From a virus (taxonomy: Duplodnaviria; Caudoviricetes), in IMG/VR virus record IMGVR_UViG_3300044825_000311, positions 1 to 59,558 of that record: a DNA stretch of 59,558 nucleotides, one strand, 5' to 3'. Within the stretch, counting starts at the first letter, position 1. The number at the start of each line of letters is the position of its first letter. The notes beneath the pieces were generated by a model, which was not told where the DNA came from, did not search any database, and saw nothing but the letters and a program-made list of their open reading frames with translations. The translations under genes were made by a program, and so were the position numbers. Shown here in pieces: positions 6,901 to 32,355 of the stretch.

Positions 6901-8372
6901 AGCTGTTCAGCACATCGACGGATGCGAATGGCAAGTTCAGCATCCGTGCGGGCGATCCGATCAACGATGCACAATACTACTTTGATATCGCTAAGAAGTT
7001 TGAGGTAGCCCGCGCCAACAAAGATACAGCCAAGGAAGCTGCGCTGCAGGCTGAGTACAACCTCACCTATTACGAAGCGCGGAATATCGGGCGTGAAATC
7101 CGTGAAGGTAAGCTGATCCCGGCACAGGCCAATGCGGTACTGGAGACATCGCGCGGTCTGTATTCGGGCGGCAAGCTGGGCCGCGCATGGATGAAGTTTG
7201 TTGACACCTACATGGTTCCGTTCAATGTTTCGGAACAGTCAGCCCGTCGCGCCACATTCCTCGCCGCTTTCCGTCTGGAATTTAATAGGCTCAAGCAGGC
7301 GGGTGTAGACGAGGATAAGGCCAGCGAGATGGCCCGTGCGTTTGGTGTGCAAACGGTTGATCTCACACTTGGTGAATACTCCACCACCAACCGTCCGCCC
7401 GCATGGCGCGAAGGTCCTGCGTCACTGCTGTTTATGTATAAGACATATCCGATCACCGTGGCGCTGCTCATGCGGAACCTGTCCTACGGCGGAAAGATCG
7501 GGATGCTGACCGGGCTGATGTTCCTGTCGGGTATGTCGGGCCTGCCATTTGCCGAAGACATTGAAGACCTCATGGACACGCTGGCGCAGAAATTCGGTCT
7601 GGACATTGGGCAGGGACCTGCGTTGCGTAAGTTCCTCACTGAACAACTGGACGCAGCGTTCCCCGGTATCGCGCCGTTTGTGATCAAGGGCGTAGCTAAC
7701 CAGTTCGCTCCTATCGATGTTGCGGCCAAGACGGGTATCGGTAACATCATTCCCGGCACTGGCTTCCTCCTAGCTGGGTCTGACCCGTCGCACGAACTGG
7801 CAGAAGTCGCTGGTCCGATCTTCGGCATGGGCTTTAATATGACGAAGTTTACCTATGATCTTATCCGCGCTCCGGTATCGGAAACAACTACGGTCGTTGA
7901 TGCGCTCCGCAATTCGCCAGTGTCGCTGGCGCGGTCTGTGGGCGATGTGGCAATGTACCTCCAGAGCGGAGCCATCGTAGACAAGCGCGGATATGTTGTG
8001 GCACCGGAAGTAAATGCTGCGACCGTGCTGACCCGCCTACTTGGTTTCTATCCGGTCGCCGCTGCCGAGCAATATGAGTTCATCAAGTACGCACGCCGCG
8101 CAGCCGACTACCAGCGTCAGGTATCTGTGGCGTATCGTGACGCATGGATCAAAGCTATGGTGTCGGGCGACCGTCAGCAAGCAGCAAGGATCGTGCAGGC
8201 GGTCAACGAATGGAACGCCGCCAACCCTGACGCCAAGCTCAACAACTGGCTGAAGAACTCGCAGCGTGCGCTTAAAGAAGCGCAACGTCCTGCTGGCGAA
8301 CGGTTCTTGAAGTCAACGCCTCTGGCCTCGCGCGGCGATCTGCAGCGGTTCCAAGACGCCATGATAGAGTAG
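969..8372 (+). CDS. Large polyvalent / DNA-ejection protein (2467 aa) with zincin-like metallopeptidase motif
   Basis: Last gene of the structural arm; Gly/Ala-rich hydrophobic N-region, Pro-rich disordered linker, HEAIGH...EEYLA motif, large helical C-terminal region typical of podophage ejection proteins. Confidence 0.75.
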   Translation: MAGLNDPLSQLDYGEQFLRGGPSVTQVSGIAGLASPERLNIARSTQNSLDRLDQLGSMDFGAPPPPPEEVAKRPVLAISRSTGKVWANGKLFTLDDAQGAVESQQFMGGAPAPAPLAEASDWEPLSEDAYAQHIQQIKNPSLTTLASKNFGTGFDNMQMLLGYGLQFLGAEETGQGIVRQQLEDIQRNAPYQRKLEDIPERGAVEWLVANVAQQGPNIIESIVTAAIGAGAGAVAGGGANPFTAVGGAMTSLVGKQTFKQAVLAAAKKYANGEALDAAEQKLLKEAAGITLAATKSLDDDAARAAMAGISATGRQQAITGGAVTFSAGQNYTTAVSDLYGESVEGGTPDRGLAALAAIPYAAAETLPEYLAALRFFNGFKVRALKAGGKGGRPGALAANVALGAGAGAAVEGSTEAFQETLGLGMNAEIDVNSPEGVSRLLNAFAAGAAIGGLVGGASNMNSGRATDLLSGGTKAAEQNGTTLTSGPAAPTRAQPQGELFPGANLGTPPAQVPTGPMAPPSPDMGGAQGDLFMTQPPTAGMPQGELFLRGALGRPPAQVPTGPMQPAAAPDLLAQGDLFAPPRQTMLALPPSSTIYVPPTGQQQLLSRARYAPPTERRPQGEMFTSAEMGKGQAPARVPTGPLAPPSTDMGGEQGALQPRREFPPDYGVSTPAAATQLAENLNPLRRQMELAQAQQQRSAQTPTAAEVDYNAALAEQPLVLDTEGASTGKNKLQDDGRRRIIAGFNTLTKPQQDAILVEFNNDETQLLDYVRREKPPVVRKQFAALASVEPSAFEVKTPKPAEPQAAAQPIVEETPNAPEGGKVEQGDKLKRTQNRTGVGGRRVNRNLKAKEQEAGGEAGGGNRLKQGKAAQEEVTPSPKGEGVAAPSSKKTAAETVREEATKLRTLMRNGEDLPSPETDLDDVYFAVAQVMNADDRRLPAALDGLLSWAMDSGIDKDAKDAARAYINAYVEDEDIAAAKARRKAKQEVAKEARKAEKKALKTMEAERKKGRNMLSEFDSVENAVDENGRPLKPIDKIQFKTIVDTFRRGLAKAPQIFIYKNQADLRAKNPSLYRRAAEARPQGDFDTARAAGYAFGDDQVIIFSDRIATPKMLRFVLAHEAIGHFGMRSLLPTKQFNALMDYIYENSPLARSVVDSEVEYSGMDRREAVEEYLANYASKLDTSIVTRIWNALKTALNKLGIKFEDDLTRYLVSHARRYTREGSSLFEPSKFALKMLNVESSMNGSGRFNIPSILPEQRELSFKLDMAGGMPSNITDAWGDLKSAGVNTAQAFDKFVRTVFRLANYDALRNHGAAAYETLINAVRTNVAALRNQYNEDLADIMGLNEESRNAFSYSMYIGRSIAHQRMKFDAATRSLPLVKLVNGEVVTDDDNLEKFLKLGTVSKKELNEGVTVKVPMPTTIVGTYKEDEVVIKGVRARLGRDLTDAEYDNYLKGRRKMAEIEIDLLKARYENYFATEKVSLSGIRKILSDETLTDDDLGLAKNAVNHAKALVAKNIEYDAQGLPTITTDGLTEANKFLAKFNEALIKNEKEYTDALKDEVRAFYDNKAQADAAIRAIEKFRERRRKIGPELGPDVVFAVQNRLKEIVLADQAFETAQSHARRTIAQGYIPVFREGGWQTRVEGQVNGKPVTLHPEHQNKLILRLENDRASSERGAKALNAALKDVEVEALVLQSDGTYKTQKVTLFARASKTVDDVAADPSLDIDNFLHGLRMFGLATNPKAVEKVIVTLTTPGSALRKALRFDDTPGYDMTAGITAMSRHIVTRASLIAKTRYQPAMHELLDRNSDRGKLWFGDAEAVMVAKEKLDAATNDTDRAFYRNELITNLYKYRTTNPGAKDWDGSRATFPGRPEGAELGNVFYNNAIRTQQWLDGSENIAESTFEGKRIPAALKAVTSVAFLGGSMAQFAQNMISPITNVIPYLASKNGKTGFGGGFGAVAASLEYSRAFKDVVGVKGLKLFSTSTDANGKFSIRAGDPINDAQYYFDIAKKFEVARANKDTAKEAALQAEYNLTYYEARNIGREIREGKLIPAQANAVLETSRGLYSGGKLGRAWMKFVDTYMVPFNVSEQSARRATFLAAFRLEFNRLKQAGVDEDKASEMARAFGVQTVDLTLGEYSTTNRPPAWREGPASLLFMYKTYPITVALLMRNLSYGGKIGMLTGLMFLSGMSGLPFAEDIEDLMDTLAQKFGLDIGQGPALRKFLTEQLDAAFPGIAPFVIKGVANQFAPIDVAAKTGIGNIIPGTGFLLAGSDPSHELAEVAGPIFGMGFNMTKFTYDLIRAPVSETTTVVDALRNSPVSLARSVGDVAMYLQSGAIVDKRGYVVAPEVNAATVLTRLLGFYPVAAAEQYEFIKYARRAADYQRQVSVAYRDAWIKAMVSGDRQQAARIVQAVNEWNAANPDAKLNNWLKNSQRALKEAQRPAGERFLKSTPLASRGDLQRFQDAMIE

Positions 8373-19976: not shown

Positions 19977-20074
19977 GAAACCCTCGTCACAATGAAAGCA
20001 AAGAACAGCCCGAAGCCACCCATTCCAGCGACAAACCCGATGGCGAGGCTGGTGAGGTCAATTGTCAACGTCAT
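19973..20074 (-). CDS. Small membrane peptide (33 aa)
   Basis: MTLTIDLTSLAIGFVAGMGGFGLFFAFIVTRVS; ATGA overlaps at both ends; translated by hand. Confidence 0.55.
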   Translation of the reverse strand: MTLTIDLTSLAIGFVAGMGGFGLFFAFIVTRVS

Positions 20075-20511
20075 GCTTCCTCCTTCCCCGGCGCGGGCTG
20101 GCCGTCGAGGGCGGCGCGGGCGGCCTTAAGCTCCCGCACGGACACCTCGCACTTTATGATGACCATATCCGGCCACTTGCTGAAATCGTCTCCGTCATCG
20201 GCCTTGATGCCTGCAAACGGCTTCAGCGCCGCCCGCAGTCGCTCGTTCTCGTCCTCCAACTTCTGCACCATCGTGCAATACCGGTTCTTCGCCGCATCGA
20301 AACCAGTCATGTAGTTAAACTCCGCTTCTTCTTTCAGCCGCTCGTTGTCGGCGCGGAGGGCGGTGATCTCGTCAGAAAACTCAACAGCTAAACCATACAG
20401 ACCATGAAGATGGACGTATGTCTCAGAACCTTTGTAGGTATCCCTGTCGCACCAAGACATGATCTCATCGTTGTCATCGAACGCATTAAGTTTATCTTTT
20501 GCATCGCTCAT
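20071..20511 (-). CDS. Hypothetical coiled-coil protein
   Basis: Repeated NERL heptads; coupled ORF. Confidence 0.65.
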   Translation of the reverse strand: MSDAKDKLNAFDDNDEIMSWCDRDTYKGSETYVHLHGLYGLAVEFSDEITALRADNERLKEEAEFNYMTGFDAAKNRYCTMVQKLEDENERLRAALKPFAGIKADDGDDFSKWPDMVIIKCEVSVRELKAARAALDGQPAPGKEEA

Positions 20512-20810
20512 GGACGATCATCCTTTCCTATTACACGTTTCTCGTAAGCAAGCAGGAACAACAGGCAGCACCCGGCATGAGCCAAGTGGCTAAGGCCAGT
20601 CTCAGGGTCGGCTTCTTCGCGCCGCCACCACGCCCACATATGTCTCATCAAGGCAGCGAACGGGCGATGCCACGACATGCCCTGCTCCCAGTTCCTATCG
20701 CCATACTTGGTTGCGCCAAACTGCAAGACCTTGACGATCTCTTCGACCGCATCGGGTGGCAGCAGGTGCCACGGCAACTTGGCTTCATCGAACTTCTTGC
20801 CTTCACTCAT
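20508..20810 (-). CDS. dATP/dGTP diphosphohydrolase domain protein (DUF5664-like)
   Basis: KFDEAK..WHLLP...FGATKYG..NW..G...AALMRH..AW...DPETGLSHLAHA. Confidence 0.85.
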   Translation of the reverse strand: MSEGKKFDEAKLPWHLLPPDAVEEIVKVLQFGATKYGDRNWEQGMSWHRPFAALMRHMWAWWRREEADPETGLSHLAHAGCCLLFLLAYEKRVIGKDDRP

Positions 20811-21196
20811 GTCTTATATTTCCCCGTACGGATAAGGTGATCGACCTCTTCGATATGTTTCTTCATCACATCGGTGATCAGATCGAACGTCTCGACGGCG
20901 CTCATGATGGTAGTATGATGCTTGTTAAGGTAACGCGCAAGCGTTGGATACGAAACATCAAGGCGGTTATGATACATCACCCAGCAGAAGTGCTGCCTTG
21001 CAATAACTAAGTTGTTGGTACGACTGTTCGATTTCATCTCGTCCGTGGTCAGACAATAGTACGAACGTACTGCATGGAAGCATTTGTTCATGGAGTAGAT
21101 GGCGCGGTTCTCCCGCGCCAGCTTGTCGATCTCGTTGAAAACATCTGGATAGTTATGCCGCAGAAAGTCAGCGCGAATGTACTTGAGTTGGGTCAT
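20807..21196 (-). CDS. Protein with DnaA C-terminal (domain IV-like) HTH
   Basis: SRTNNLVIARQ...SYPTLARYLNKHHTTIMSAV resembles the DnaA R...ARQ...DHTTV motif. Confidence 0.75.
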   Translation of the reverse strand: MTQLKYIRADFLRHNYPDVFNEIDKLARENRAIYSMNKCFHAVRSYYCLTTDEMKSNSRTNNLVIARQHFCWVMYHNRLDVSYPTLARYLNKHHTTIMSAVETFDLITDVMKKHIEEVDHLIRTGKYKT

Positions 21197-21876
21197 TCCT
21201 CGAACACCCCGAACTCCTTGCGCAGCGGGTTGCGCCACCTGTTGATAAGGTTGTCGTACTCACGCATCAGGTCTTTGTAATTCTTGTCTCTGCCCATCAC
21301 GGCATAGGTCAAGAAGTTAATCAGTTGGTCCGGGTACTCACCGTTACGCATCCAGTAAGCGAACTCTTTGCAAGTAAAATACGTCACTCCATTGCTGTCA
21401 CCACGAAGCCCCAGCTTGAAGCGAACGGCCAGACCCTTGCGATGATCCTTCAAAGTCTTGAGCCATACCTTACGTGCATCCTTGTCTACCCGCAGGTGCA
21501 TGTCAGGCAGGGGGTTCTCACACGCGGTGCTACGTAGATTAAATTTAATACCGCCATAGTATTCCGGCAGCGCAGTAAACCCACGGCCAATGCGATACCG
21601 ACCGTGTGATATGCGGATCAGCCCCAGTGGTAAAACTTTATGTAAGTTAAGCACAAGCGCGAAGGAACAAGTGTCGTAGAGTTCTTCCGACGACATGACG
21701 AAAGTGATCATGTCATCCGGCGTGATGTTCGCCAGTCTGTGATCGTTGATCATCAGTCGAAAGCTATCGTCAGAGTTCTTGAACAGGCGAAGACCGCAGC
21801 GATGCAACGGCTTACCTTCAGAGGGAGAACGAGCGCGGCTGAATGCCTTGACACAATGGGCGTAGGATGAAAGCAT
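21193..21876 (-). CDS. Hypothetical protein
   Basis: 227-aa ORF with AAGGA RBS, coupled to next gene. Confidence 0.75.
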   Translation of the reverse strand: MLSSYAHCVKAFSRARSPSEGKPLHRCGLRLFKNSDDSFRLMINDHRLANITPDDMITFVMSSEELYDTCSFALVLNLHKVLPLGLIRISHGRYRIGRGFTALPEYYGGIKFNLRSTACENPLPDMHLRVDKDARKVWLKTLKDHRKGLAVRFKLGLRGDSNGVTYFTCKEFAYWMRNGEYPDQLINFLTYAVMGRDKNYKDLMREYDNLINRWRNPLRKEFGVFEE

Positions 21877-21889
21877 GATATGTTTATCC

Positions 21890-22516
21890 TTATTGGTTGA
21901 GCATCTTGTCGATGGCTACACGGGTTGCCAGTTCTTTCAGCGCCGGGTCCAGTTCCATCGTGACGGAAGACAGACGGTGCTGCGGCACGGATACCTTGGA
22001 CTTAACTTCTTTGGGCAAGAACTCCACGAGTGGAGGGAAATCCTTGATGGCAGGAGGCAGGGACTTGTGCCACTTGAGGACACCCCTCACCGCTGCTTGG
22101 GCGGCATCGCGCTGGGCATGAAGAGTATCCTTCTGTTCTTGCCAAGCTAACAGCGCGTCAACGATATGCTCAGTGCGGATCGTGCGGTTGAGGATTACAC
22201 GGTCGTGGTAATCATCCTTCTGCATGTGTTCATTGGAGGGCATACCGTAAGACCCAAGCTGTGGCGAGGATAGCTTCAGCTTGATGTATACTGGTTTATC
22301 TACGATCTTCCGCAGTTCGATCTCGTAACGCCTGCAAAAGAAGCACTCAGGCAGAAGCGCCATGGCTTCACGATGCGGCTCGTACATCAGGTTATAAAGC
22401 TCATCGCCTACATCAGGCTTCTGCTTCTCGATCTGCTCAACGAACTTATGATAAAGGTCTTGAATGTTATTGGTAACTGCTGCACGTAGCTTGTCTGTAA
22501 TCCGAACTGTGGTCAT
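21890..22516 (-). CDS. Hypothetical protein, possibly Nmad5-like
   Basis: N-terminal VRITDKLR..V helix and C-terminal SL..AIKDFPPLVEFLP; resemblance only. Confidence 0.45.
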   Translation of the reverse strand: MTTVRITDKLRAAVTNNIQDLYHKFVEQIEKQKPDVGDELYNLMYEPHREAMALLPECFFCRRYEIELRKIVDKPVYIKLKLSSPQLGSYGMPSNEHMQKDDYHDRVILNRTIRTEHIVDALLAWQEQKDTLHAQRDAAQAAVRGVLKWHKSLPPAIKDFPPLVEFLPKEVKSKVSVPQHRLSSVTMELDPALKELATRVAIDKMLNQ

Positions 22517-22570
22517 TGGTCTTTCCCTTGGTTGAGTTACCCCCTGCCACAATGACAGGGGGCTTAGGCA

Positions 22571-23677
22571 TTACATCTTTACGACTTCGCCCCACGGTGC
22601 CTTGTAGGAATAGTTGCTGACCCACAGAACAGGGTAATCAGGGGCGGGACCAAAGTCATCGCAGCACAGATCGGTCAGCACCACGGTGGCAACGGGGTTG
22701 ATATCCTGCTCTTCAAGCGCCTTGAAGATGGGCGAGAAGGCGGTGCCGCCAGTGCCGGGAGACACGAGCTTGCCGATGGTATCGTCGGGGAGATAAGTTT
22801 CCTGCTTGCATACCTCGTGGTGGAAGTACACGACATGCAGTTTCTCAGGCGCACCGTCACCGTGGATAGCCCGGAGTTCAGTGGCGAACTCGGCCAGCGT
22901 CTTGTCATCAATGGACCCGGAACAATCCAGTGCCACGGCGATCTCGCCAAGGCGCTCACCGCTACGGGTCGGGAGATAGATACCCTGTGCCAAGAAGCGA
23001 CGATTGGGTCGAGCGAAAGAACGCTGGTCGGTCTTGGCCTTGGTGATGAAGCGACGAAGAACATCACGCCAGTCAACCTTGGGCTGGAGTGCATCACCGA
23101 TAAGGCGCTGGAGATTGGCCGACAACTTGCCAGCCATCTTTGCAGCCTGTGCAGCCTGAGCGATCATAACCTTCTGCTCGGCCATGTCCTGTGCCTGTTC
23201 AGCAGGAGAACCATCAGCCTCTTGCACGTCATCGCCAGTACCGCCGATGGGACCATCGCCATGAGTGTCGGGGAGCAGCTTATAGATACCGTCCGTGGTG
23301 CCACCGCCAGCGTCATACAAAGCCTTGTTAAGCATACCGCCGGGGATGAACTTGCCGATCTTCTCGTCGGTCAGAAGCTGGTTGATGACGTAATCACCAG
23401 CCATGTTCCACTTCTTGGGGTTGCGACCGTTGAGGCGGTACATATGCTCGAACATGGGATGGAATACCTCGTGTGCTACGAGGAACTTAAGCTGCTCATC
23501 GTCAAGGTCTTCGATGAAGGACGGGTTGAACTTGACCCACTTGCCATTGGTGCAAGCGGTCGGAATGCTGGGGTCCAGTGACATGGGCATGTTAAGAGCA
23601 AGCGTACCGATGAAGGGCTGCTCAAGGATCAAGGCAGTTCGCGCCTTGGCAAGTCTACGATTGAGGTCCATAGCCAT
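22571..23677 (-). CDS. Metallopeptidase-vWA protein (DUF2201-like)
   Basis: TACTNG, HEVFH zincin motif, WN.A.D..IN, MIDAS DCSGS, GGTAF, LTD. Confidence 0.88.
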   Translation of the reverse strand: MAMDLNRRLAKARTALILEQPFIGTLALNMPMSLDPSIPTACTNGKWVKFNPSFIEDLDDEQLKFLVAHEVFHPMFEHMYRLNGRNPKKWNMAGDYVINQLLTDEKIGKFIPGGMLNKALYDAGGGTTDGIYKLLPDTHGDGPIGGTGDDVQEADGSPAEQAQDMAEQKVMIAQAAQAAKMAGKLSANLQRLIGDALQPKVDWRDVLRRFITKAKTDQRSFARPNRRFLAQGIYLPTRSGERLGEIAVALDCSGSIDDKTLAEFATELRAIHGDGAPEKLHVVYFHHEVCKQETYLPDDTIGKLVSPGTGGTAFSPIFKALEEQDINPVATVVLTDLCCDDFGPAPDYPVLWVSNYSYKAPWGEVVKM

Positions 23678-23714
23678 AGTATGTTTTCCTTTGTCGGGGT
23701 TGGTCGGGAACCGG

Positions 23715-23760
23715 AAGATCGCACGACAGTTGTGACGCTGCCATGCGACACGTTGTCGCG
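23715..23760 (-). promoter_or_regulatory. Palindrome-associated promoter element 1 (upstream of vWA gene)
   Basis: Minus strand cGCGACAacgTGTCGCA, TGGCAG, 17 bp, tgcGATCTT. Confidence 0.6.
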
Positions 23761-23782
23761 GTCAATGCCCTGCACTGACGGG

Positions 23783-24034
23783 CTAATGCTCGTAGTATTC
23801 TTCAACAGATACAATCTGTTGCGTATCGAAGTAGTCTTCGATGAGTTCCAGCATGTCCTTAAGGACTTCTTCCGGCTCATAATGCCCGCCGGGAACCTGC
23901 CCAATGAGGTTAGCCACAAGCGCCACAGCCTTGGAGAAGGCAATGATAACCTCCCCCTCAGTGTGGTCGCCCTTGGGTACGGCCAGAAGCTCTTGCACCA
24001 GCTTGTTGATACGCTCTTGGTCTATCTTGCTCAT
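23783..24034 (-). CDS. Acidic hypothetical protein (83 aa)
   Basis: AAAGGA RBS, ATGA coupling. Confidence 0.7.
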   Translation of the reverse strand: MSKIDQERINKLVQELLAVPKGDHTEGEVIIAFSKAVALVANLIGQVPGGHYEPEEVLKDMLELIEDYFDTQQIVSVEEYYEH

Positions 24035-24279
24035 GGTAATCCTTTCATAACAGCGTAATCATAGAAGCGTTTGAAGTCTTGGTAGTACACAGACTGTATA
24101 TTATCCGACAAGTCTGTGTACTTATTGGTTTTTCTTTTTCTTTTTTCACCGTGCTTATAGAGAGGTAGGGTGAACTCTATACCATACAGCATCTTTACTG
24201 TAGCCGCTAAGGTTAGCACCCTATCGCGTCCGGGGTAGTGCGAGGGGGCCAGACGGACCCCCTCCCATGGTGCCATCAC
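24031..24279 (-). CDS. Hypothetical protein, AT-rich (82 aa)
   Basis: Start overlaps upstream stop; GGAGGA RBS. Confidence 0.6.
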   Translation of the reverse strand: MMAPWEGVRLAPSHYPGRDRVLTLAATVKMLYGIEFTLPLYKHGEKRKRKTNKYTDLSDNIQSVYYQDFKRFYDYAVMKGLP

Positions 24280-25136
24280 AGTCCTCCCATGAACACAGCC
24301 ATCTTATCCATGATGGCCTTGGCCTCATCGATCTTCTTTGTGCGGAACGTATCGTCTCCAAGCACCGCCTCTTTGTTGAGGCTGGCCAGCTTGGCCTCGA
24401 CCTCACGGCGCATGGCTTCGAGGTTGGGGTCATCGTTAAAGTTAAGGCGCGGCAGCAACTCGCACAGTTCCACGAGGTGTTCGATGCTGCTCTCATGAAA
24501 GCGGGACTTGGGATCGCTTACCTTAACCATCTTTTCGGTAAGGTGCTGGACCCGATCATACAGCCGCTGCCAAACGTCTTTCATTGCGGAAGCACTGGCT
24601 TGCTGAACACGTTCTTCTACGTCACGCTGTATCCGTGACAGTTCAGCGTCACCGATGCTTACACGAAAGTCGTTCGACGGAACGGGGAACACGGCCATGT
24701 CCATCTTGAACTTGGCTGCAATGTCCTTCTCGTGAGGGTAATCCTCTTCACGGTACAGCGAACCAAGGAACCGTTTGGCGTCAGCCTTGAGCAACGAATA
24801 GTTGCTGGTGAATAGGTTCACCAACGTCTCCCACTCGGACTTCTCCTTACGAAACTCATTGATGAAGTTGAGGTAATTGGAGGTGGGCAGCATCTGGGTG
24901 CCTTCGATGCCCCACGGCAACGTGTTCTCGTAATACTTGGTGCGAATATATCCTGCCTTCTGGTGGACGTTGGAGAGGTAGTCGTTAAGGGGCAGGAGCG
25001 ACTTGTTGTAGCGGCCAACGGAGGCGTTGACGCCATGGGTATTGGCCACCTCAAGGGTAGCCTTCTTGTCGTACTTTCGTGCCGTCCACTGGGAGATGTT
25101 AAGCTGGACGAGCAGAGCGCGGTCGGAAAGCTGCAT
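24276..25136 (-). CDS. Helical phage protein, DUF3150-like
   Basis: ISQW.ARK.D...YNKSLL...LPW...Y...P....KF pattern; lies between the AAA and vWA genes. Confidence 0.6.
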   Translation of the reverse strand: MQLSDRALLVQLNISQWTARKYDKKATLEVANTHGVNASVGRYNKSLLPLNDYLSNVHQKAGYIRTKYYENTLPWGIEGTQMLPTSNYLNFINEFRKEKSEWETLVNLFTSNYSLLKADAKRFLGSLYREEDYPHEKDIAAKFKMDMAVFPVPSNDFRVSIGDAELSRIQRDVEERVQQASASAMKDVWQRLYDRVQHLTEKMVKVSDPKSRFHESSIEHLVELCELLPRLNFNDDPNLEAMRREVEAKLASLNKEAVLGDDTFRTKKIDEAKAIMDKMAVFMGGL

Positions 25137-25153
25137 GGTATATATCCTTTGTT

Positions 25154-25209
25154 AGCCTCATCAGTGCCAGCATCACTGGCAGACGGGGGATTTCTCCCCC
25201 GTTTCGGCT
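25154..25209 (-). ncRNA. Type II hammerhead ribozyme HH1
   Basis: Minus strand AGCC-GAAA-C-GGGGGA-gaaa-UCCCCC-GUC/-UGCCAG-ugaug-CUGGCA-CUGAUGA-GGCU; all core nucleotides and three stems present. Confidence 0.93.
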
Positions 25210-25301
25210 TAGTGCATCAAAAGCACATGGGCGATAAATCCTGCCTGTGTAAGCAGGACACCCACTGCAAGCAAAAACAGCCAAAATGTCCAGCCTGTCA
25301 A
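25209..25301 (-). CDS. Small membrane peptide (30 aa)
   Basis: TTG start overlapping the AAA stop; MTGWTFWLFLLAVGVLLTQAGFIAHVLLMH; stop abuts HH1. Confidence 0.45.
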   Translation of the reverse strand: MTGWTFWLFLLAVGVLLTQAGFIAHVLLMH

Positions 25302-26296
25302 AACATCACGTCATGGTGCTTGATGACCCAGTTACCAAACGCTGCCGTATTGTGCAGCGCCTTGTCGCGGCGCAGCGCAAGGCTAACCGTAAGGACTGAG
25401 AACTCAGCGGGCATACGCTCCACGTACTGGCAAACACGTTCAAAGTTGGAAGTGCTGGCACGTTGTGCCAGTGAACCAGCAAGAGCGTACAGCGTAGCGG
25501 GATCGGTCGGAACGTCAGCCGACTGGGGGTTAAGCAGGATGGCGTCAGGGTTGGGCAGCTTGCGGAAGATACGCAAGAACCCAGTGAACTCAGAGGCCGG
25601 ACCCTCACCGACCGCACCCTTGAACGTCTCGAACTCAGCCTCCTTGGGCACTACGTCAATGGCAGGGGAAACACGTTCGCACCAGCCACGAGGTGTCGGG
25701 TTCTTGTCACGCTGGGCATCGAACTCGTGCAGCAGACCGGACTTGAAGCGGATGAAAGCGATAACCTCCGGGCGGATGTTGTTATCCATAGCCCACTTGG
25801 TCCAGTCATCGATGTGGGTTTCAAGCTCGAACTCGAACTCACGGTCGCTGAGATGGGACAGAACACGATTGGCACCAGCACGATCCTGCTGACGATTGCC
25901 AGTGGACAGGATGAACCAGTTATCAGCCATCGCTACACCGTGAAGCTCACGTTCCTGTACGAGATTAGCCAGTGCCTTCTGGAGATCGTTGTTAGCCTGA
26001 TTACGATCATCGAAGCACAGCACACCGGGCTGACCGTTGTCGTACTTGGACCCCTTGGCAGGGAACCAATCGGGCAGCTTGTAGTACAGCATGGGCTTGT
26101 CGATCATGGGAACACCCAAGTCTTCCACCGGGATGGTCGGGAGATGACGCTGGATGTACTGATAACCCAAGTCCTTGGCGACCTGTTTGATGATGGAGGT
26201 CTTGCCCCCACCCGGAGGGCCAACGATAACAGCCGATGACTTGACACCAGCCTGAAGCAGCGAAGAGATGGTATCCTTGAGAAGAGAAGCACGCAT
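25298..26296 (-). CDS. MoxR-like AAA+ ATPase
   Basis: Walker A GPPGGGKT, Walker B VLCFDD, TGNR, TPRGW; AAAGGA RBS before ATG 26296. Confidence 0.88.
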   Translation of the reverse strand: MRASLLKDTISSLLQAGVKSSAVIVGPPGGGKTSIIKQVAKDLGYQYIQRHLPTIPVEDLGVPMIDKPMLYYKLPDWFPAKGSKYDNGQPGVLCFDDRNQANNDLQKALANLVQERELHGVAMADNWFILSTGNRQQDRAGANRVLSHLSDREFEFELETHIDDWTKWAMDNNIRPEVIAFIRFKSGLLHEFDAQRDKNPTPRGWCERVSPAIDVVPKEAEFETFKGAVGEGPASEFTGFLRIFRKLPNPDAILLNPQSADVPTDPATLYALAGSLAQRASTSNFERVCQYVERMPAEFSVLTVSLALRRDKALHNTAAFGNWVIKHHDVMF

Positions 26297-26343
26297 TGGT
26301 TTATATATCCTTTGTTTGTTGTAGTGGGTTGGTCGAGGTCGGA

Positions 26344-26389
26344 AGTGTCGCACCATCCTCCGTGTCGGTCGATGCGACACGCTGTCGCA
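26344..26389 (-). promoter_or_regulatory. Palindrome-associated promoter element 2 (upstream of AAA gene)
   Basis: Minus strand TGCGACAgcgTGTCGCA, TCGACC, 17 bp, tgcGACACT. Confidence 0.6.
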
Positions 26390-26435
26390 GGGCAGGCTTG
26401 CCCTTGCTTTGTTTCAGCGAAGCTGCATGTTTTGC

Positions 26436-26675
26436 TTACGTTATCTGCTTTGCCAAAACTGGGTGCTTGGCACTGGGCATGAGCAAGCGTTTCTTATAGC
26501 CACGGCCTACGTTAAGGGCACGGTAGTAGGCTACAGCCTGATGGATGTTACCAGTGAAGCTCCACTTGGTGCGGTAAGCACTGCGGTTCTTACCTATCTG
26601 CACAAGGAACTCGGTCGTGTTGGTATAGACCAACGACTTGCCGTCGAGCGTGACAGTCTTGACTTCGATGGTCAT
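26436..26675 (-). CDS. Early hypothetical protein (79 aa)
   Basis: GGAGG RBS, TAATG coupling. Confidence 0.75.
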   Translation of the reverse strand: MTIEVKTVTLDGKSLVYTNTTEFLVQIGKNRSAYRTKWSFTGNIHQAVAYYRALNVGRGYKKRLLMPSAKHPVLAKQIT

Positions 26676-26899
26676 TACTCAGCCTCCCTGACTTCGGACA
26701 CAAACCCATTCTCGTCAATGTGCAGTATCGTTATGGCATAGGCGTCATCGACCACCACGTAACCACCGTCATGGTGAATACATTTGGCCTTGTTGAAATC
26801 GTTGTCGAGGACAGTGGTCGCGCGTTCGGTCCAGCCGCCCTTGTAGGCAGCCCTTACAAGGGTGTTGAAGTCCTTGGTAGGAACAATCTTAACGTCCAT
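26675..26899 (-). CDS. Early hypothetical protein (74 aa)
   Basis: GGAGG RBS, tiled operon. Confidence 0.75.
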   Translation of the reverse strand: MDVKIVPTKDFNTLVRAAYKGGWTERATTVLDNDFNKAKCIHHDGGYVVVDDAYAITILHIDENGFVSEVREAE

Positions 26900-26900
26900 C

Positions 26901-27089
26901 TTAACCCTCCATAGCTACAGCGTGAACGACAAGGTCCGTGCCCGGACCGATAACCTTGATAAGCTCATGGCCCCCAGCGTTTTCCCTTTGGGCATAGCGT
27001 TTGGCCCACGACACAGCGGCGTTGTGTCGCGTGAACTCTTCAAGCAGAGTTGGTTTATGGCCGGGGTTAACCCCGTATACCTTAAACAT
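26901..27089 (-). CDS. Early hypothetical protein (62 aa)
   Basis: AAAGGA RBS. Confidence 0.7.
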   Translation of the reverse strand: MFKVYGVNPGHKPTLLEEFTRHNAAVSWAKRYAQRENAGGHELIKVIGPGTDLVVHAVAMEG

Positions 27090-27166
27090 ATGTATCCTTT
27101 CGTATTGGGCGGGCTTGCCCCCACTGCACAGCCACTGGGGCTGTGCAGGAAGAGTTTCCCTTAAAC

Positions 27167-27430
27167 TTATGCAAAGAACGTAAACTCAGCGACCTCGCTT
27201 GCGAGGACGCCATAGGTAGCAGCGTCATGCCAACGCATAAACTGGGTATCCTCGGACACATCGACGCAGTGGCAGGACCCATAAGTCCTGACCATGTCAT
27301 CTACAAATGCGTTAAGGGCAGCGCAGTCCTCGTCATCCATGCCGCTCTCATCGCCATTGATGAGGGCGCAAGCCCAGTGGCTGGGCAGCATAAGGGTATA
27401 GGTCTTGGTCTTGCGGTGAGCCTTAGCCAT
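27167..27430 (-). CDS. Early acidic hypothetical protein (87 aa)
   Basis: GGAGA RBS; LPSHWACALINGDESG. Confidence 0.75.
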   Translation of the reverse strand: MAKAHRKTKTYTLMLPSHWACALINGDESGMDDEDCAALNAFVDDMVRTYGSCHCVDVSEDTQFMRWHDAATYGVLASEVAEFTFFA

Positions 27431-27617
27431 GGAATATCTCCCTGCAAATCTTGTTAAAACCATAGTCAGACATAAGGGCCAGTGCCTCATCGCTGGGCAG
27501 CTTGCCGCGATTGCACGTCCGGGTTACCCCGGACGCTCTCTGTGTGATGAATACCGTATGGTTGCCGACATAACGCAACCGCCAGCATTCGCTGTCGATG
27601 CTCAACCAATTAGCCAT
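27423..27617 (-). CDS. Early hypothetical protein (64 aa)
   Basis: GAGGAGAACACCAATG start context. Confidence 0.7.
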   Translation of the reverse strand: MANWLSIDSECWRLRYVGNHTVFITQRASGVTRTCNRGKLPSDEALALMSDYGFNKICREIFHG

Positions 27618-27978
27618 TGGTGTTCTCCTCGGTTGCGTTAAGCCTATCGTTAATAAGGCTGGTATAGCCCAGCCGATCCAAGAGCTTGATCTGCTCAAGG
27701 GTCAAGAGAACGGTTTCGCAATGCGGATGGGTAAACGACCTGTGTTTGGACGTTGTCGGACCATACTTTTCCTTGTTCTCGAACCACGTATTGACCTTGG
27801 GAACATAGACGAACAACGGCCAATGGGGTCCGTAGCTATAGACGCAGTAACGGGCGAGGCTACCATCAGGGGTATCCTGCCACTCAGCGTAAAGCTGGCC
27901 ATTGGAGTTCTTGAACGGGGTTCGAGCCTTGACATAGGGACGAGCAGTACGTCCATTAATTCGCTTAGGCTTAGTCAT
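27610..27978 (-). CDS. Early hypothetical protein (122 aa) directly downstream of HH2
   Basis: AAAGGA RBS before ATG 27978; YCVYSYGPHWPL...TTSKH. Confidence 0.75.
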   Translation of the reverse strand: MTKPKRINGRTARPYVKARTPFKNSNGQLYAEWQDTPDGSLARYCVYSYGPHWPLFVYVPKVNTWFENKEKYGPTTSKHRSFTHPHCETVLLTLEQIKLLDRLGYTSLINDRLNATEENTNG

Positions 27979-27993
27979 AATATATCCTTTGTT

Positions 27994-28045
27994 GGCCTCA
28001 TCAGTGCCAGCGTCACTGGCAGACCGCCTCACGGCGGTTTCGGCC
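27994..28045 (-). ncRNA. Type II hammerhead ribozyme HH2
   Basis: Minus strand GGCC-GAAA-C-CGCC-guga-GGCG-GUC/-UGCCAG-ugacg-CUGGCA-CUGAUGA-GGCC. Confidence 0.93.
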
Positions 28046-28051
28046 TTAAGG

Positions 28052-28264
28052 TTACGAGTGGACGTAACCATCCTGCTCAATGGCAAGCCACATGCCGCAC
28101 CAGTGAACGACTACAGCGCCATCCATACCAAACGTGGGCTGTACGGTTCGACGGAACTGGCGGTAGCTTATGCCTTTGGCCTTAAGGTCGCCGTGGGCAT
28201 ACTTGCGGAGCAGGGCGATACGCTGTTTGCGATTTAGCTTAACGTAAGTTTTAGCACTAACCAT
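28052..28264 (-). CDS. Early hypothetical protein (70 aa)
   Basis: AAGGAGAACACCAATG start; ends WCGMWLAIEQDGYVHS. Confidence 0.75.
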   Translation of the reverse strand: MVSAKTYVKLNRKQRIALLRKYAHGDLKAKGISYRQFRRTVQPTFGMDGAVVVHWCGMWLAIEQDGYVHS

Positions 28265-28463
28265 TGGTGTTCTCCTTGGGCATAAGGTGCAGTTGGGCGG
28301 TGGCGACGGCATCACCAAAATCATCGGTGTAATAGTCGCAGAGGTGGAGGTATTCCTCCTTGAGATGGAACTGTACGATGTATTCCTTGTAGTCGCGGTT
28401 ATATCGAACCACGGCCTTACGACCATTGGGGTTAGAGCCTTGGTAGACAATGTGACTAGCCAT
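28257..28463 (-). CDS. Early hypothetical protein (68 aa)
   Basis: AAGGA RBS, tiled operon. Confidence 0.7.
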   Translation of the reverse strand: MASHIVYQGSNPNGRKAVVRYNRDYKEYIVQFHLKEEYLHLCDYYTDDFGDAVATAQLHLMPKENTNG

Positions 28464-28465
28464 GA

Positions 28466-28708
28466 TCAGTTCATTCCTTCTGTGTAGGTTACAAACAGTA
28501 CAGTGTTGGACTTGTAAGGTGTAAACTTAAGCATATCGCCACAGTCCTCGGTCCGACCACGGACACCGGACAAACCCATAAGGGCTTTAGCTTTACGTAT
28601 AATGGCAAGGTTTGTGCCTGTGGCATTGTCAAACTCAGCACGCTTTACCCAAGAGTAGTTCGCTTCGCCACCAAAGGTATCTGTATATTCGACTGTAAAC
28701 TTAGACAT
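28466..28708 (-). CDS. Early hypothetical protein (80 aa)
   Basis: GGAGA RBS; TDTFGGEANYSWV motif. Confidence 0.75.
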   Translation of the reverse strand: MSKFTVEYTDTFGGEANYSWVKRAEFDNATGTNLAIIRKAKALMGLSGVRGRTEDCGDMLKFTPYKSNTVLFVTYTEGMN

Positions 28709-28743
28709 GTATATCTCCATCGGTCGGGCATCGACCTGGGCCA

Positions 28744-28789
28744 AGCGTCCCACATAGGGCGCGGCTTGTACATGCGACACGTTGTCGCA
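28744..28789 (-). promoter_or_regulatory. Palindrome-associated promoter element 3 (head of early operon)
   Basis: Minus strand TGCGACAacgTGTCGCA, TGTACA, 17 bp, tggGACGCT. Confidence 0.6.
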
Positions 28790-28794
28790 TCCTT

Positions 28795-29300
28795 AAGTTA
28801 TACATAGGTATCTGTAGATGGGTCGGAAGACAGGCAAACTATCTGTTATACACGGATAGGCTAAGTGCCTGATTTCATTGGTTCTTTTTGCAACTATCTG
28901 AACTATCTGTGTTTTTGAAGGTAATGAGCTACTACATTGATGAAGGCTGTTAATGTTAATTGAATTCTAGTCGAAAAAGGTTTGTGGCATATATATTTTT
29001 AACGGATAAACTATATATATAGGATACCAAAAAAATCTAGATCGGGCTAAGTCCTTGGTTTCATTGGAGAATCCGGAAACTATACGTAAAGTATTCCCCT
29101 TTTGTTCATGTATAAATCGAAACAGATAGTTCGGAAAGCGCAGATATTTCACCGCTAAGTCATTGATATCACAGCATATTCGCCGTTTTGTATAATTGTA
29201 AATGTATAATTAACCTTAACACTGTATACTTATACATAAGCTATAAGGCTTACAGTTGTATAATAAGGCTACGAGCTATAGGCCCCCGACGTATGGCCTA
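28795..29300. other. AT-rich non-coding region with iterated motifs and IHF-like sites; candidate origin or genome-end region
   Basis: AACTATCTG x4, TTATACA x7, YAAnnnnTTGATW-like x3. Confidence 0.5.
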
Positions 29301-29345
29301 CTACACACCCCCAAACGCAACCGCGCAGCGAACGTAGACGCAGAC

Positions 29346-29378
29346 AAAAAGAAACCCCGGTCCTTTCGGAGCCGGGGC
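29346..29378 (-). terminator. Rho-independent terminator
   Basis: Minus strand GCCCCGG-ctccgaaagga-CCGGGGT followed by TTCTTTTT. Confidence 0.8.
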
Positions 29379-29383
29379 TGTGG

Positions 29384-29461
29384 TTAGTCGTTGAAGTGGA
29401 ACACCCAGAGGTATCCGATGCAGATGAAGACGAGGTAGAAGCCGAGTGTGAGGAGGGTCAT
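29384..29461 (-). CDS. Small membrane peptide (25 aa)
   Basis: MTLLTLGFYLVFICIGYLWVFHFND; AGGAGG RBS; ATGA coupling; translated by hand. Confidence 0.6.
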   Translation of the reverse strand: MTLLTLGFYLVFICIGYLWVFHFND

Positions 29462-29616
29462 GCGACCCTCCTTCCATAGTAAGCCCAGCAGCGCGGATAC
29501 TCGGACCAGTGTGCGTTATGCTTTTCAACCTCACGTCTTGCGTTTTCTTCGGTGGTGTAAGCAACTTGCTTGCGCTGATCACCGCGCAGATAAACGACAG
29601 TCCACGGTTTTTTCAT
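29458..29616 (-). CDS. Small early protein (52 aa)
   Basis: AAAGGA RBS; MKKPWTVVYLRGDQRK...; translated by hand. Confidence 0.65.
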   Translation of the reverse strand: MKKPWTVVYLRGDQRKQVAYTTEENARREVEKHNAHWSEYPRCWAYYGRRVA

Positions 29617-29675
29617 AGGTAGTTTCCTTTGGTTTGAGGGGAGTTGGGAGGGACCGGGGTCCCTCCCTGTTGGTG

Positions 29676-29981
29676 TTACTTGTCCCTGCTACGGAAGGCT
29701 TCTTCCGAGATCAACTTGCCCTTGTTGGCCTTGACGAAGGCGTCAACCTTGTCCCGCATCGCGGAGACCTTTTCCCACTGCCACACGTAGAAGTGGAGGT
29801 TGACGCTTCCCTTGCCAGACGGGACCGAGACGTTGATCCCACCCTTGGCCGAGACCGAGATCGCGGCCTGCGGAGCCGAAGCCTTGAGAGCCTCGTTCTC
29901 AGCCTTTAGGCTGAGGATAAGCTGCATAAGCTGCTCGTTCGAGGGAGCTTCGGCCTTCGCGTTGTTCTTGGACATATTCAT
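29676..29981 (-). CDS. First early gene product, coiled-coil plus small beta domain
   Basis: Strong codon bias; directly follows the consensus promoter. Confidence 0.75.
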   Translation of the reverse strand: MNMSKNNAKAEAPSNEQLMQLILSLKAENEALKASAPQAAISVSAKGGINVSVPSGKGSVNLHFYVWQWEKVSAMRDKVDAFVKANKGKLISEEAFRSRDK

Positions 29982-30052
29982 CGCTTTCAATCAGCAGGGC
30001 CTAGGAGCCGAGGCCCTTTGGCGGCACCGAAGTTGTTCGCTTCAGTGACTTC

Positions 30053-30081
30053 AATATGGCATAAGCGGCTCGGATTGTCAA
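30053..30081 (-). promoter_or_regulatory. Strong sigma70-type leftward early promoter
   Basis: TTGACA (30081-30076), 17 bp, tgcCATATT (30058-30053). Confidence 0.75.
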
Positions 30082-30235
30082 ATTGGCCTTCAATCCCTAG
30101 GGATTAGCTACCAGGCAACAGGCCCAGCATTGCGCACCGAGTGGCGCGGCGGACCACCCTCGGGGAGGGGAGGGGGCCACATGGATTGGAAAATTCTAGC
30201 CGCCCCCCAAATGTACCCAACCTCTCAAAGCAAGA

Positions 30236-30295
30236 CCCCCAAAACCAAAGTTAACATCAACAAAAAATTATACAGCCCCCAAAACCAAAGTTAAC
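30236..30295 (+). repeat. Two exact 20-bp direct repeats, 40-bp period
   Basis: CCCCCAAAACCAAAGTTAAC at 30236 and 30276. Confidence 0.9.
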
Positions 30296-30311
30296 CTTAA
30301 CATATTCCACC

Positions 30312-30340
30312 TTGACACCCCGCGCCGCCCAGCTTACCCT
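30312..30340 (+). promoter_or_regulatory. sigma70-type rightward promoter, predicted leaderless terS transcript
   Basis: TTGACA, 17 bp, TACCCT, 6 nt, ATG 30347; no Shine-Dalgarno. Confidence 0.65.
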
Positions 30341-30346
30341 GCGTTC

Positions 30347-30826
30347 ATGTTCACACCCGTCGAATACACCAAGTGGTCAGACAGGTTATGCTTCGACATT
30401 GCCCTGCGACTGGAGGGTAGCGGAGAAGACCTGCCGGAAATTCTCAGTCGTCACAGGATCACCCCACTGGAACTCAGCGAGTTTTCCAAGGACCCGGTCT
30501 TCGACAAGAAGGTCAGGCATTACAGGGATGAAATCCGCGACAAGGGCATCACGTTCAGGCTCAAGGCCCGCGCACAGGCCGAAGAACTCCTCACCACCTC
30601 GTGGACACTGATCCATAACCTTGACGTAAGCGCGGCAGTGAAGGCCGACCTGATCAAGTCCACCATCAAGTGGGCGGGGCTGGAGACCAAGGGCGACGTT
30701 GCGGAAGGCAACGCTGGTGGCGTATCGATCACGATCAACCTTGGTGGTGAACAGCAGACGATGCGACTCGTACCCAACGAGGAACAAGCCGAAGAGATCG
30801 ATGGATACGCTGACGAGTCTGTTTGA
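30347..30826 (+). CDS. terS: Putative terminase small subunit
   Basis: 159-aa helical protein upstream of terL with C-terminal ITINLG strand. Confidence 0.65.
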   Translation: MFTPVEYTKWSDRLCFDIALRLEGSGEDLPEILSRHRITPLELSEFSKDPVFDKKVRHYRDEIRDKGITFRLKARAQAEELLTTSWTLIHNLDVSAAVKADLIKSTIKWAGLETKGDVAEGNAGGVSITINLGGEQQTMRLVPNEEQAEEIDGYADESV

Positions 30827-30983
30827 CGACCGTGGATGTGCGGTCTTTACATCGGCAAATGCGGCTGTTGCTGTCGAGGATAGCCTGCGCGACCGGGGAT
30901 TATCCTTCAAGACATACATCGTTAAGACCCGAAAGCGCGGTCTGGAATACAGGATACAACTGTTAAATGGGACTGGATATTAA
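30801..30983 (+). CDS. Small hypothetical protein (about 60 aa)
   Basis: Fills the gap between terS and terL. Confidence 0.55.
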   Translation: MDTLTSLFDDRGCAVFTSANAAVAVEDSLRDRGLSFKTYIVKTRKRGLEYRIQLLNGTGY

Positions 30984-32355
30984 CTACACGCCGCCGCCGA
31001 CCGGCAAATTGTTCATGGAGGACGACTCCAAGATGCGGGTCCTGATGGGACCAGTCGGTTCAGGCAAGTCCGTGACGTGCAGCTTTGAAATTGTGCGCCG
31101 TGCAAGCCTGCAACTGCCCAATAAACAGGGTATTCGCAAGACACGAGCGGCTGTAGTGCGCGAAACAGCCCGTCAGTTGCAGGATACGACCATCAAAACC
31201 TTCCTTGATTGGTTCCCGCCGGGGGTTTGCGGCGAGTATATGCGCACGACGAAGACGTATTTCTTCAAAGTTGGCGATGTCGAGTGCGAAATCATGTTCC
31301 GTGCGCTTGATGACGCCGACGATGTGGCGAATTTGAACTCGTTGGAGCTTACTTTTGCGTGGTTTAACGAGTGCCGGGACATACATCCTGACATTGTGGA
31401 CGCCATGTCGAAGCGTATTGGCCGTTTTCCGTCAAAAAAGGACGGCGGACCGACGTGGCACGGCATGTGGGGCGACACAAACCCGCCAACCATGGATACA
31501 TGGTGGTATTATCAGATGGAAGGGCTTGATCCGAAGGACGGGGTGTCGGCAAATGAGAACGGATGGGCGGTATTCAAGCAGCCGTCAGGGCGTTCGCCCT
31601 ATGCGGAGAACGTCGAGAACCTGCCAGAGGGGTATTATGACACCCAAGGCCGGTCGGAGGAGTACATCCGGGTCTATATCGACGGAGATTACGGACTTTC
31701 TTCGGCGGGTATGCCGGTCTACAAGTATTTCCGCCCTGATTATCACATGGCCCCTCAGCGCCTTCATCATATTACCAATGGTTCTCGCCCTGTGGTGGTC
31801 GGCATGGACTTGGGCCTTACGCCAGCAGCGGTTATAGGCCAGCAAGACCCACGTGGACGCGCGTTGGTGCTTGCGGAAGCGGTCAGTTTCGACATGGGTG
31901 TGCAGCGGTTCATCCGGCACATCCTCAAACCGCTGTTGTACGAGCAGTTTCCCGGCGCTCCGGTGCTTATTGTAACCGATCCGGCGGGTATTCAGCGGGC
32001 GCAGACCGATGAGCGCAGTGCCGTTGATATTATCAAAGCAGAGGGGTTCAAGGTCATTCCGGCGCGGACAAACGCCATATCGGCGCGTATCAACGCGGTG
32101 GATGACTACCTCATGCGGCAGGTTGACGGCGATCCTGCGTTTCTCGTGGACCCACGATGCACTCAGTTGAAGGCTGCGATGATGGGTGGCTACCGGTACA
32201 AGCCCAAGGGCGACAGTGACATCGACAAGAACAAGCACAGCCACGTCGCTGAAGCCCTGCAGTACCTGATGCTTCACATCGCCACGGCGGGTGAAGGGAT
32301 GTACGTTGCCCTGCGCAGAAATGTGAAGCCGATTTCCGCTACAGGATGGACTTGA
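30967..32355 (+). CDS. terL: Terminase large subunit
   Basis: GPVGSGKS Walker A, AWFNE Walker B, DTNPP motif C, GMDLGLTPA nuclease motif, SHVAEALQY. Confidence 0.93.
   Translation: MGLDINYTPPPTGKLFMEDDSKMRVLMGPVGSGKSVTCSFEIVRRASLQLPNKQGIRKTRAAVVRETARQLQDTTIKTFLDWFPPGVCGEYMRTTKTYFFKVGDVECEIMFRALDDADDVANLNSLELTFAWFNECRDIHPDIVDAMSKRIGRFPSKKDGGPTWHGMWGDTNPPTMDTWWYYQMEGLDPKDGVSANENGWAVFKQPSGRSPYAENVENLPEGYYDTQGRSEEYIRVYIDGDYGLSSAGMPVYKYFRPDYHMAPQRLHHITNGSRPVVVGMDLGLTPAAVIGQQDPRGRALVLAEAVSFDMGVQRFIRHILKPLLYEQFPGAPVLIVTDPAGIQRAQTDERSAVDIIKAEGFKVIPARTNAISARINAVDDYLMRQVDGDPAFLVDPRCTQLKAAMMGGYRYKPKGDSDIDKNKHSHVAEALQYLMLHIATAGEGMYVALRRNVKPISATGWT

Follow-up and report, generated by a model that had tools for sequence, protein, structure and literature searches.

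Type II hammerhead ribozymes between genes of a phage replication module, and a predicted role in cutting its transcript

A first-pass annotation of a phage genome had pointed to a 56-nt stretch, here called HH1, in the leader of a gene for a 286-aa protein, and had read it as a type II hammerhead ribozyme with a full core and three stems. Two questions are raised by such a reading: whether the element belongs to the hammerhead family, and what a self-cleaving RNA would do at the junction between two genes. The stretch of DNA analyzed (the window) comprises an entire virus record, 59,558 bases long and with direct repeats at its ends, and the DNA runs that contain sequence of this record are freshwater metagenomes. 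A blastn search of positions 24000-29000 against 50,697 phage records returned no match.

Family membership and fold of the two hammerheads

The core elements are arranged along the HH1 RNA in the order stem II 5' strand, GAAA, stem III hairpin, UC, stem I hairpin, CUGAUGA and stem II 3' strand (Table 1). [quoted passage not shown] The core, the stems and the topology claimed in the annotation were thus all confirmed from the sequence, as were the coordinates of the predicted cut (25182|25181), which would leave the downstream product a leader of 45 nt before the ATG at 25136. A second hammerhead, HH2, is located 2,840 nt upstream on the same strand; its core is likewise complete, and its predicted cleavage site is 28022|28021.

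A search with the Rfam hammerhead models, as proposed with the annotation, matched HH1 to Hammerhead_II (RF02276) with 38.1 bits at 25147-25209(-) (E = 3.3e-4 for the window) and HH2 to the same family with 38.2 bits at 27987-28045(-). Both scores are above the gathering score of that model (37 bits), by only about 1 bit, and no other Rfam family was matched at E <= 1 across the whole window. A pattern comprising the core plus its spacing had two matches in the window and none in 100 dinucleotide shuffles. In isolation, the 56-nt HH1 has a hammerhead as its minimum free energy (MFE) fold (-28.9 kcal/mol, z = -4.8), and none of 200 shuffles folded as well. Isolated HH2 also folds as a hammerhead (z = -3.0), with one of 200 shuffles as good.

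Related loci were collected with the 286-aa protein as the query; 80 of the 289 viral loci that it retrieved were kept. A covariance model (R1) was built from 11 hammerheads that had been picked by an exhaustive descriptor in the window and related phages. When the window and the 80 loci were searched with R1, 14 hammerheads were found, two in the window and 12 in seven of the 80 loci; elsewhere in these sequences there were just weak partial matches, on the opposite strand of stem III. Against R1, their own model, HH1 scored 80 bits and HH2 63.8 bits. Among five further records, four of them 97-100% complete, a hammerhead was present only in record G006, as an orthologue of HH2.

In the 11-sequence alignment, 11 of the 17 base pairs had changed on both sides, and these changes were spread over all three helices. 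The covariation score was 0.588, compared with 0.05-0.17 when the partners were slid by 1-3 columns, and none of 500 shuffles reached 0.588. Because the descriptor demanded pairing, the 100% pairing in this alignment arises by construction, and the information lies in the compensatory changes and in the slid controls. CUGAUGA, GAAA, the A-U pair and GUC are intact in all 14 copies, and the stems vary by compensation. Natural variation was also seen among sequencing runs, of which 22 were found and four were compared, as contigs only: two were RNA (X17 and X20), one was probably DNA (X16) and one was DNA (X4). In the variants of run X16, positions 25195 and 25190, which form the closing A-U pair of stem III, had been lost together. 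By family assignment, made from sequence and covariation, HH1 is a real type II hammerhead.

Table 1. Coordinates of the two hammerheads, their parts and the flanking genes in the window
Feature	Position	Strand	Basis
HH1, type II hammerhead	25154..25209	minus	sequence; Rfam RF02276; model R1; MFE fold
HH1 stem II	AGCC 25209-25206 paired with GGCU 25157-25154	minus	sequence
HH1 GAAA	25205-25202	minus	sequence
HH1 stem III hairpin, 8 pairs	25202-25183	minus	sequence
HH1 GUC triplet (C17 = 25182)	25184-25182	minus	sequence
HH1 stem I hairpin, 17 nt, 5-nt loop I	25181-25165	minus	sequence
HH1 CUGAUGA	25164-25158	minus	sequence
HH1 predicted scissile bond, 3' of C17 (25182) and 5' of U1.1 (25181)	25181..25182	minus	GUC position relative to stems III and I; known chemistry of the family
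HH1 3' tail: AAC (conserved A at +1 = 25153), SD AAAGGA 25150-25145, AU-rich spacer	25137..25153	minus	sequence
45-nt repeat, 43/45 identical to 27980-28024	25140..25184	minus	repeat family D1
Downstream gene, 286 aa, widespread unnamed family	24276..25136 (ATG 25136-25134)	minus	2301 relatives at E <= 0.001
30-codon hydrophobic frame, TTG to TAA (25211-25209)	25209..25301	minus	translation; TTG overlaps ATPase stop, TAA overlaps first base of HH1
Upstream gene, MoxR/CobS-like AAA ATPase, stop 25300-25298	25298..26380	minus	Pfam AAA_5; phrog_1297 at 1.4e-68
HH2, type II hammerhead, followed by AAAGGA 27990-27985 and ATG 27978	27994..28045	minus	Rfam; model R1; sequence
Gene after HH2, 122 aa, without family match	27610..27978	minus	orthologues in L007 and record G006 likewise preceded by a hammerhead

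Position of the hammerheads between genes

The minus-strand genes of the window span approximately 8.5 to 30.9 kb, and plus-strand structural genes begin at 30,967. The minus-strand module includes a primase/helicase, a helicase, a DNA polymerase, a PD-(D/E)XK nuclease, a dCMP deaminase, a DnaA-like HTH protein, an AAA ATPase and a DUF2201 metallopeptidase/VWA protein. As the replication genes are on the minus strand, HH1 and HH2 are both on the coding strand of the module, and the long run of co-oriented genes makes the polycistronic mRNA assumed in the annotation plausible. A scan of 20000-32000 gave promoter-like sites (11, with 9.2 expected) and terminator-like sites (15, with 11.6 expected) at chance level, and the limits of the transcription unit are therefore not set by sequence signals. 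The contigs from the RNA libraries X17 and X20 have gaps over both ribozymes (25146-25991 and 27825-28247), and contigs cannot show RNA ends. Apart from both modules there is an ORF of 2,467 aa at 969-8372 (+), of which only the C-terminal ~550 residues match phrog_11358 and phrog_21376, with function unassigned.

HH1 is on the coding strand between a stop codon and the SD and ATG of the 286-aa gene, as the annotation had placed it. The identity of the stop codon requires qualification: a TAA does abut the ribozyme, but it closes only a 30-codon frame that opens with TTG, and the stop of the ATPase gene is 89 nt further up. The 89-nt stretch with the 30-codon frame is an insert, as in the related locus L007 the TAA of the ATPase gene adjoins the hammerhead directly, and in run X4 a DNA contig passes straight from 25210 to 25300. 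The frame may encode a small membrane peptide, or may be a mere insert. The label 'DUF3150-like', which had been given to the 286-aa protein, depends on a match to DUF3150 (PF11348) that scores below the threshold (14.9 bits, cut-off 24.9 bits; E = 0.017) and amounts to a weak N-terminal likeness over 28 residues (5-32). There was no precomputed Pfam domain among the 120 relatives listed of the 2301 for this protein, and no match to PHROGs at E <= 0.001.

HH1 and HH2 share the 45-nt repeat listed in Table 1, which contains the GUC, stem I, the core, the stem II 3' strand, the SD and the spacer. With 43 of 45 bases identical from the GUC to the SD spacer, the 3' products of the two ribozymes would have nearly the same leader. 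The strands of stem II are also nearly interchangeable (GGCC/GGCC in HH2 and AGCC/GGCU in HH1). Near HH2 there is a further direct repeat of 22 nt (91% identical; 27611-27632 and 28258-28279), at the 3' ends of two minus-strand ORFs with similar C-terminal tails.

The build was then followed in a wider, arbitrary sample, in which the core pattern with a 17-nt stem I hairpin matched at least 120 viral contig stretches. The descriptor identified at least 179 hammerheads in at least 113 of the matched stretches listed, with up to nine per locus. Among these matches, stem II has exactly four pairs in 152 of 179 hammerheads, and the stem I hairpin is 17 nt long in 161 of 179, a length that was preset for the seed match and not for its neighbors. 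Base conservation was obtained from 147 unique canonical copies among the matches listed, window and relatives included. In this set position -1, just before stem II, is A in 137 copies, and position +1, just after it, is A in 117 and G in 12 (A or G in 129). Loop I is closed by a G-C pair and reads U (138 of 147), N, A (113), N, G (111); the penultimate position of loop 1 is a pyrimidine in 74 of these copies, with U in HH1 and C in HH2. HH1 carries the loop I U (U25175) and an A at both flanking positions (A25153 at +1 and A25210 at -1).

Most type II members have a pseudoknot, taken as at least four pairs, that joins loop I to the 3' tail, a feature that does not strictly define the type. 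Among the matches listed there was no sign of it, the longest complementary run averaging 2.70 compared with 2.74 for shuffled tails. In five hammerhead-bearing records, one of seven Rfam matches was above the cut-off and six were below it, and the hammerhead of L044 was missed by an Rfam search at E <= 0.01. Annotation at the Rfam cut-off would miss most members of this pseudoknot-less build.

Placement relative to genes was tested with 171 unique viral hammerheads among the matches listed, using crude frame-based proxies for genes. The stop of a frame of 80 or more codons was at most 10 nt upstream of 97/171 hammerheads in the sense orientation, compared with 10/171 in antisense and 58/1710 at random. 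A start that opens 60 or more codons was at most 45 nt downstream in 131/171 (sense), 37/171 (antisense) and 563/1710 (random), and the two conditions were found together in 77/171, 2/171 and 19/1710, respectively. The median gap in this set is 2 nt between the stop and the ribozyme and 23 nt between the ribozyme and the start, and the histogram of stop-to-ribozyme gaps peaks between -1 and +4. These observations suggest that, as a general rule, the build is a sense-oriented filler of the intercistronic spacer, and that HH1 and HH2 are typical members.

Individual loci of the wider sample had features of their own. In L084, L091, L106 and other loci, five to nine hammerheads are found within a few kb, with stems II and III that tend to persist and a stem I that varies; L091 has nine copies with one stem III, eight with one stem II, and five stem I sequences. 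In L018, the hammerhead at 3716-3771 is followed 3 nt later by the ATG of a 67-codon ORF (3775-3978), an arrangement also seen in L020 and L021, and the sole SD-like motif of L018 (GAGG) is formed by the last core A and the stem II 3' strand. An SD placed inside the ribozyme in this way would be freed only after cleavage.

Predicted cutting of the transcript and its precedents

The reading that we consider probable is that HH1 and HH2 are self-cleaving type II ribozymes that split a polycistronic mRNA, giving products that are hairpin-ended, separately stable and separately translated. Both would be transcribed within the mRNA of the minus-strand replication module, where each ribozyme would make up the entire spacer from the stop codon of one cistron to the ribosome-binding site of the next. 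Once transcribed, HH1 would fold and then cut after C17 (25182); cleavage is predicted because of family membership and the published type II precedents.

The type II permutation would leave one hairpin at the new end of each cleavage product. The upstream product would retain its stop codon, intact and 27 nt before the cut, and would end in the GC-rich stem III hairpin with a 2',3'-cyclic phosphate. The downstream product would carry a 5'-OH directly on the stem I hairpin, followed by ~28 nt of core and tail and then by the SD and ATG. The annotation had predicted a hairpin-capped 5' end, and in the computed fold the predicted downstream product indeed starts directly on a 7-bp stem I hairpin. 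The two products are connected through the 4-bp stem II only and should therefore separate. Hairpins at 3' ends impede 3' exonucleases, and a 5'-OH on a base-paired 5' end evades the 5'-monophosphate-dependent entry of RNase E, so that the two forms of protection together make separately stable cistrons likely. The outcome would be the conversion of a single long transcript into separately stable, separately translated mRNAs with a standard leader. That both products would be hairpin-ended could also explain why the type II permutation is favored in operons. We infer that HH1 would cleave in vivo, that its product ends would be protected and that expression would be affected.

The annotation had also suggested that cleavage frees the SD. 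For HH1 this was not upheld, as the unpaired probability at -14 to -5 before the ATG is 0.76 in the uncut RNA and 0.75 in the cut RNA. For HH2 this probability shows a modest rise upon cleavage, from 0.67 to 0.81, and in the uncut fold the AAGG of the SD is base-paired with a CCUU that precedes stem II. As a general mechanism, SD release was rejected: over 133 hammerheads the mean rises only from 0.56 to 0.61 in a comparison with no length control, a shorter RNA would give such a rise anyway, and HH1 is unchanged.

Type II hammerheads that flank phage genes, with transcript processing proposed for them, have been in print since 2011, and the locus is no new kind. As described in Perreault 2011 (PMC3088659), clustered prophage hammerheads flank genes and cleave polycistronic constructs of ~2 kb in vitro and in E. 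coli, and the processing of long phage transcripts was already proposed there for type II hammerheads. The present hammerheads resemble the type II ribozymes of that account (PMC3088659) in their core, their circular permutation and their occurrence as multiple copies that flank single genes or short blocks. They are unlike its type II consensus in having a 5-nt loop I, no pseudoknot signal and a tail that carries the SD, whereas the tested type II ribozyme of that paper needed the pseudoknot between loop I and the 3' tail for fast cleavage. Three further type II hammerheads, near phage-like genes, cleave in Desulfovibrio vulgaris cells and during in vitro transcription (cyPhyRNA-seq, PMC8782182); these are likewise beside phage-like genes, but in a bacterial chromosome.

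A tertiary motif of most natural hammerheads is given in Dufour 2009 (PMC2632901) as UNmYN in loop 1 and RNnA in loop 2; two of its elements, a U at the 5' side of loop 1 and the opposition of R and A where loop 2 begins, were found to be essential. The present build is like this motif in that a U starts loop I and an R:A opposition is found at the far end of stem II. It is unlike the motif in that 'loop 2' is open, with the mRNA entering and leaving there, and in that the penultimate Y is conserved in only ~50% of copies. Through these bases, a tertiary contact between loop I and the open stem II may form in the present build.

RiboJ is reportedly an engineered insulator, made from a satellite-RNA hammerhead with an added hairpin. 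HH1 would be comparable to it in that a hammerhead before the RBS removes the upstream RNA and leaves a fixed leader with a 5'-OH. RiboJ is not type II and there is no common descent, and the analogy is one of function only.

The role of self-cleaving ribozymes in bacteria and phages was still called open in a 2019 review (PMC6765202), and a survey of the open-access literature found no functional test of intercistronic phage type II hammerheads beyond Perreault 2011 and that review. The locus makes a clean test case: the phage genome is complete, and each of its two near-twin hammerheads fits exactly between a stop codon and an SD. Close relatives have zero spacer or a plain hairpin at the position of HH1, and natural with-and-without pairs therefore exist.

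Distribution among relatives and competing readings

Three junctions of the operon carry hammerheads, and these differ among phages. The junction before the 115- to 122-aa gene is occupied in the window, L007 and G006. The junction before the 79-aa gene is occupied in L007 only, and in the window the 79-aa gene overlaps its upstream neighbor. Before the 286-aa gene, hammerheads are found in the window, L007, L044, L058 and L064; at this junction the SD and ATG of L008 and L010 come directly after the stop, with zero spacer, and L003, L004 and L006 have a plain GC-rich hairpin instead of a hammerhead. The ATG and the SD-like motif of the 286-aa gene align in all eight sequences compared.

A tree of the 286-aa protein comprised 81 rows, of which three (L024, L038 and L047, each with <120 nt of upstream sequence) were left unscored. 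Of the 78 rows that could be scored, five, from two clearly separate clades, have a hammerhead directly upstream of the gene, and the starred branches of the tree force at least two changes in occupancy. The ribozymes of the two clades differ in all three stems, which fits separate insertions. As most relatives manage without a hammerhead, the element is dispensable for the 286-aa gene.

The main rival to transcript cutting is a selfish or near-neutral intergenic cassette with an attached SD, spread by recombination or copying and kept because it is nearly harmless. Such a cassette would be expected to have a patchy distribution like the one observed, with hammerheads in few of the related loci, three different junctions occupied in different phages, at least two changes at the 286-aa junction and zero spacer there in some relatives. 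Copying is also indicated by the resemblance between copies within a genome, as stem II is common in 69% of 98 within-genome pairs compared with 13% between loci, and stem III in 58% compared with 2%; the near-identical 45-nt repeat of the window, and the multiplicity of up to nine copies per locus among the matches listed, are of the same kind. However, the order of stop, ribozyme and start is very regular and is seen in the sense orientation only, and a neutral insert would not be expected to be so tightly placed. The intact cores and the compensatory changes in the stems argue, in addition, that cleavage competence is under selection. We regard this reading as unlikely, and selfish spread and usefulness are in any case compatible with each other.

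A second possibility is that the element is a switch gated by translation, in which the terminating ribosome would unfold the hammerhead, so that cleavage would reflect, or be timed by, translation of the cistron upstream. The upstream stop overlaps the 5' edge of the ribozyme, including the conserved A that probably makes a tertiary contact. For HH1, the A at -1 and the first stem II base both come from the TAA, and among the matches listed the stop is 0-4 nt from the ribozyme in most cases and A is strongly preferred at -1 (137 of 147). This argument is purely positional, however, and short gaps are expected in any case where genes are packed as tightly as in phages. TAG is also used, accounting for 26 of the 97 adjacent stops among the matches listed, besides TAA and TGA. 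Gating by translation appears quite improbable on this evidence.

The presence of two near-twin copies raises the possibility of a paired reaction, in which the 2,840-nt RNA between HH1 and HH2 is released or circularized, or the outer pieces are joined, by the ribozyme's reverse reaction or by an RtcB-type ligase of the host. The near-identical 3' halves and the near-interchangeable strands of stem II mean that the 5' half of one copy could dock on the 3' half of the other, and stem II is common in 20 of 31 within-genome pairs that differ in stems I and III, compared with 13% between loci. Copying also explains this sharing of stem II, however, and no RNA ligase, kinase or RNA-repair gene was found among the 34 ORFs of the window that were scanned. 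Spliced or circular products of clustered hammerheads were sought in Perreault 2011 (PMC3088659), and none were reported there. Excision or splicing is thus very improbable here; if true, it would be a step of protein-coding RNA excision or splicing in a DNA phage, and in a milder variant the element would be a mobile natural insulator, with cutting gated by ribosomes that terminate on the overlapping stop.

That the hairpins are merely RNase III sites, stabilizers or attenuators, with an incidental likeness to a hammerhead, is barely credible: the plain hairpin of some relatives at the same junction and the Rfam scores that barely exceed the threshold would suit it, but the whole core is kept in 14 of 14 copies with compensating stems, the core pattern is absent from 100 shuffles, and the lengths of stem II (4 bp) and of the stem I hairpin (17 nt) are held constant, a constraint that a simple hairpin would not require.

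The plain hairpins are found in the nearest relatives that lack HH1 (~560-640 in L003, and ~3930-3990 in L004 and L006), and could be either decayed hammerheads or independent stabilizers.
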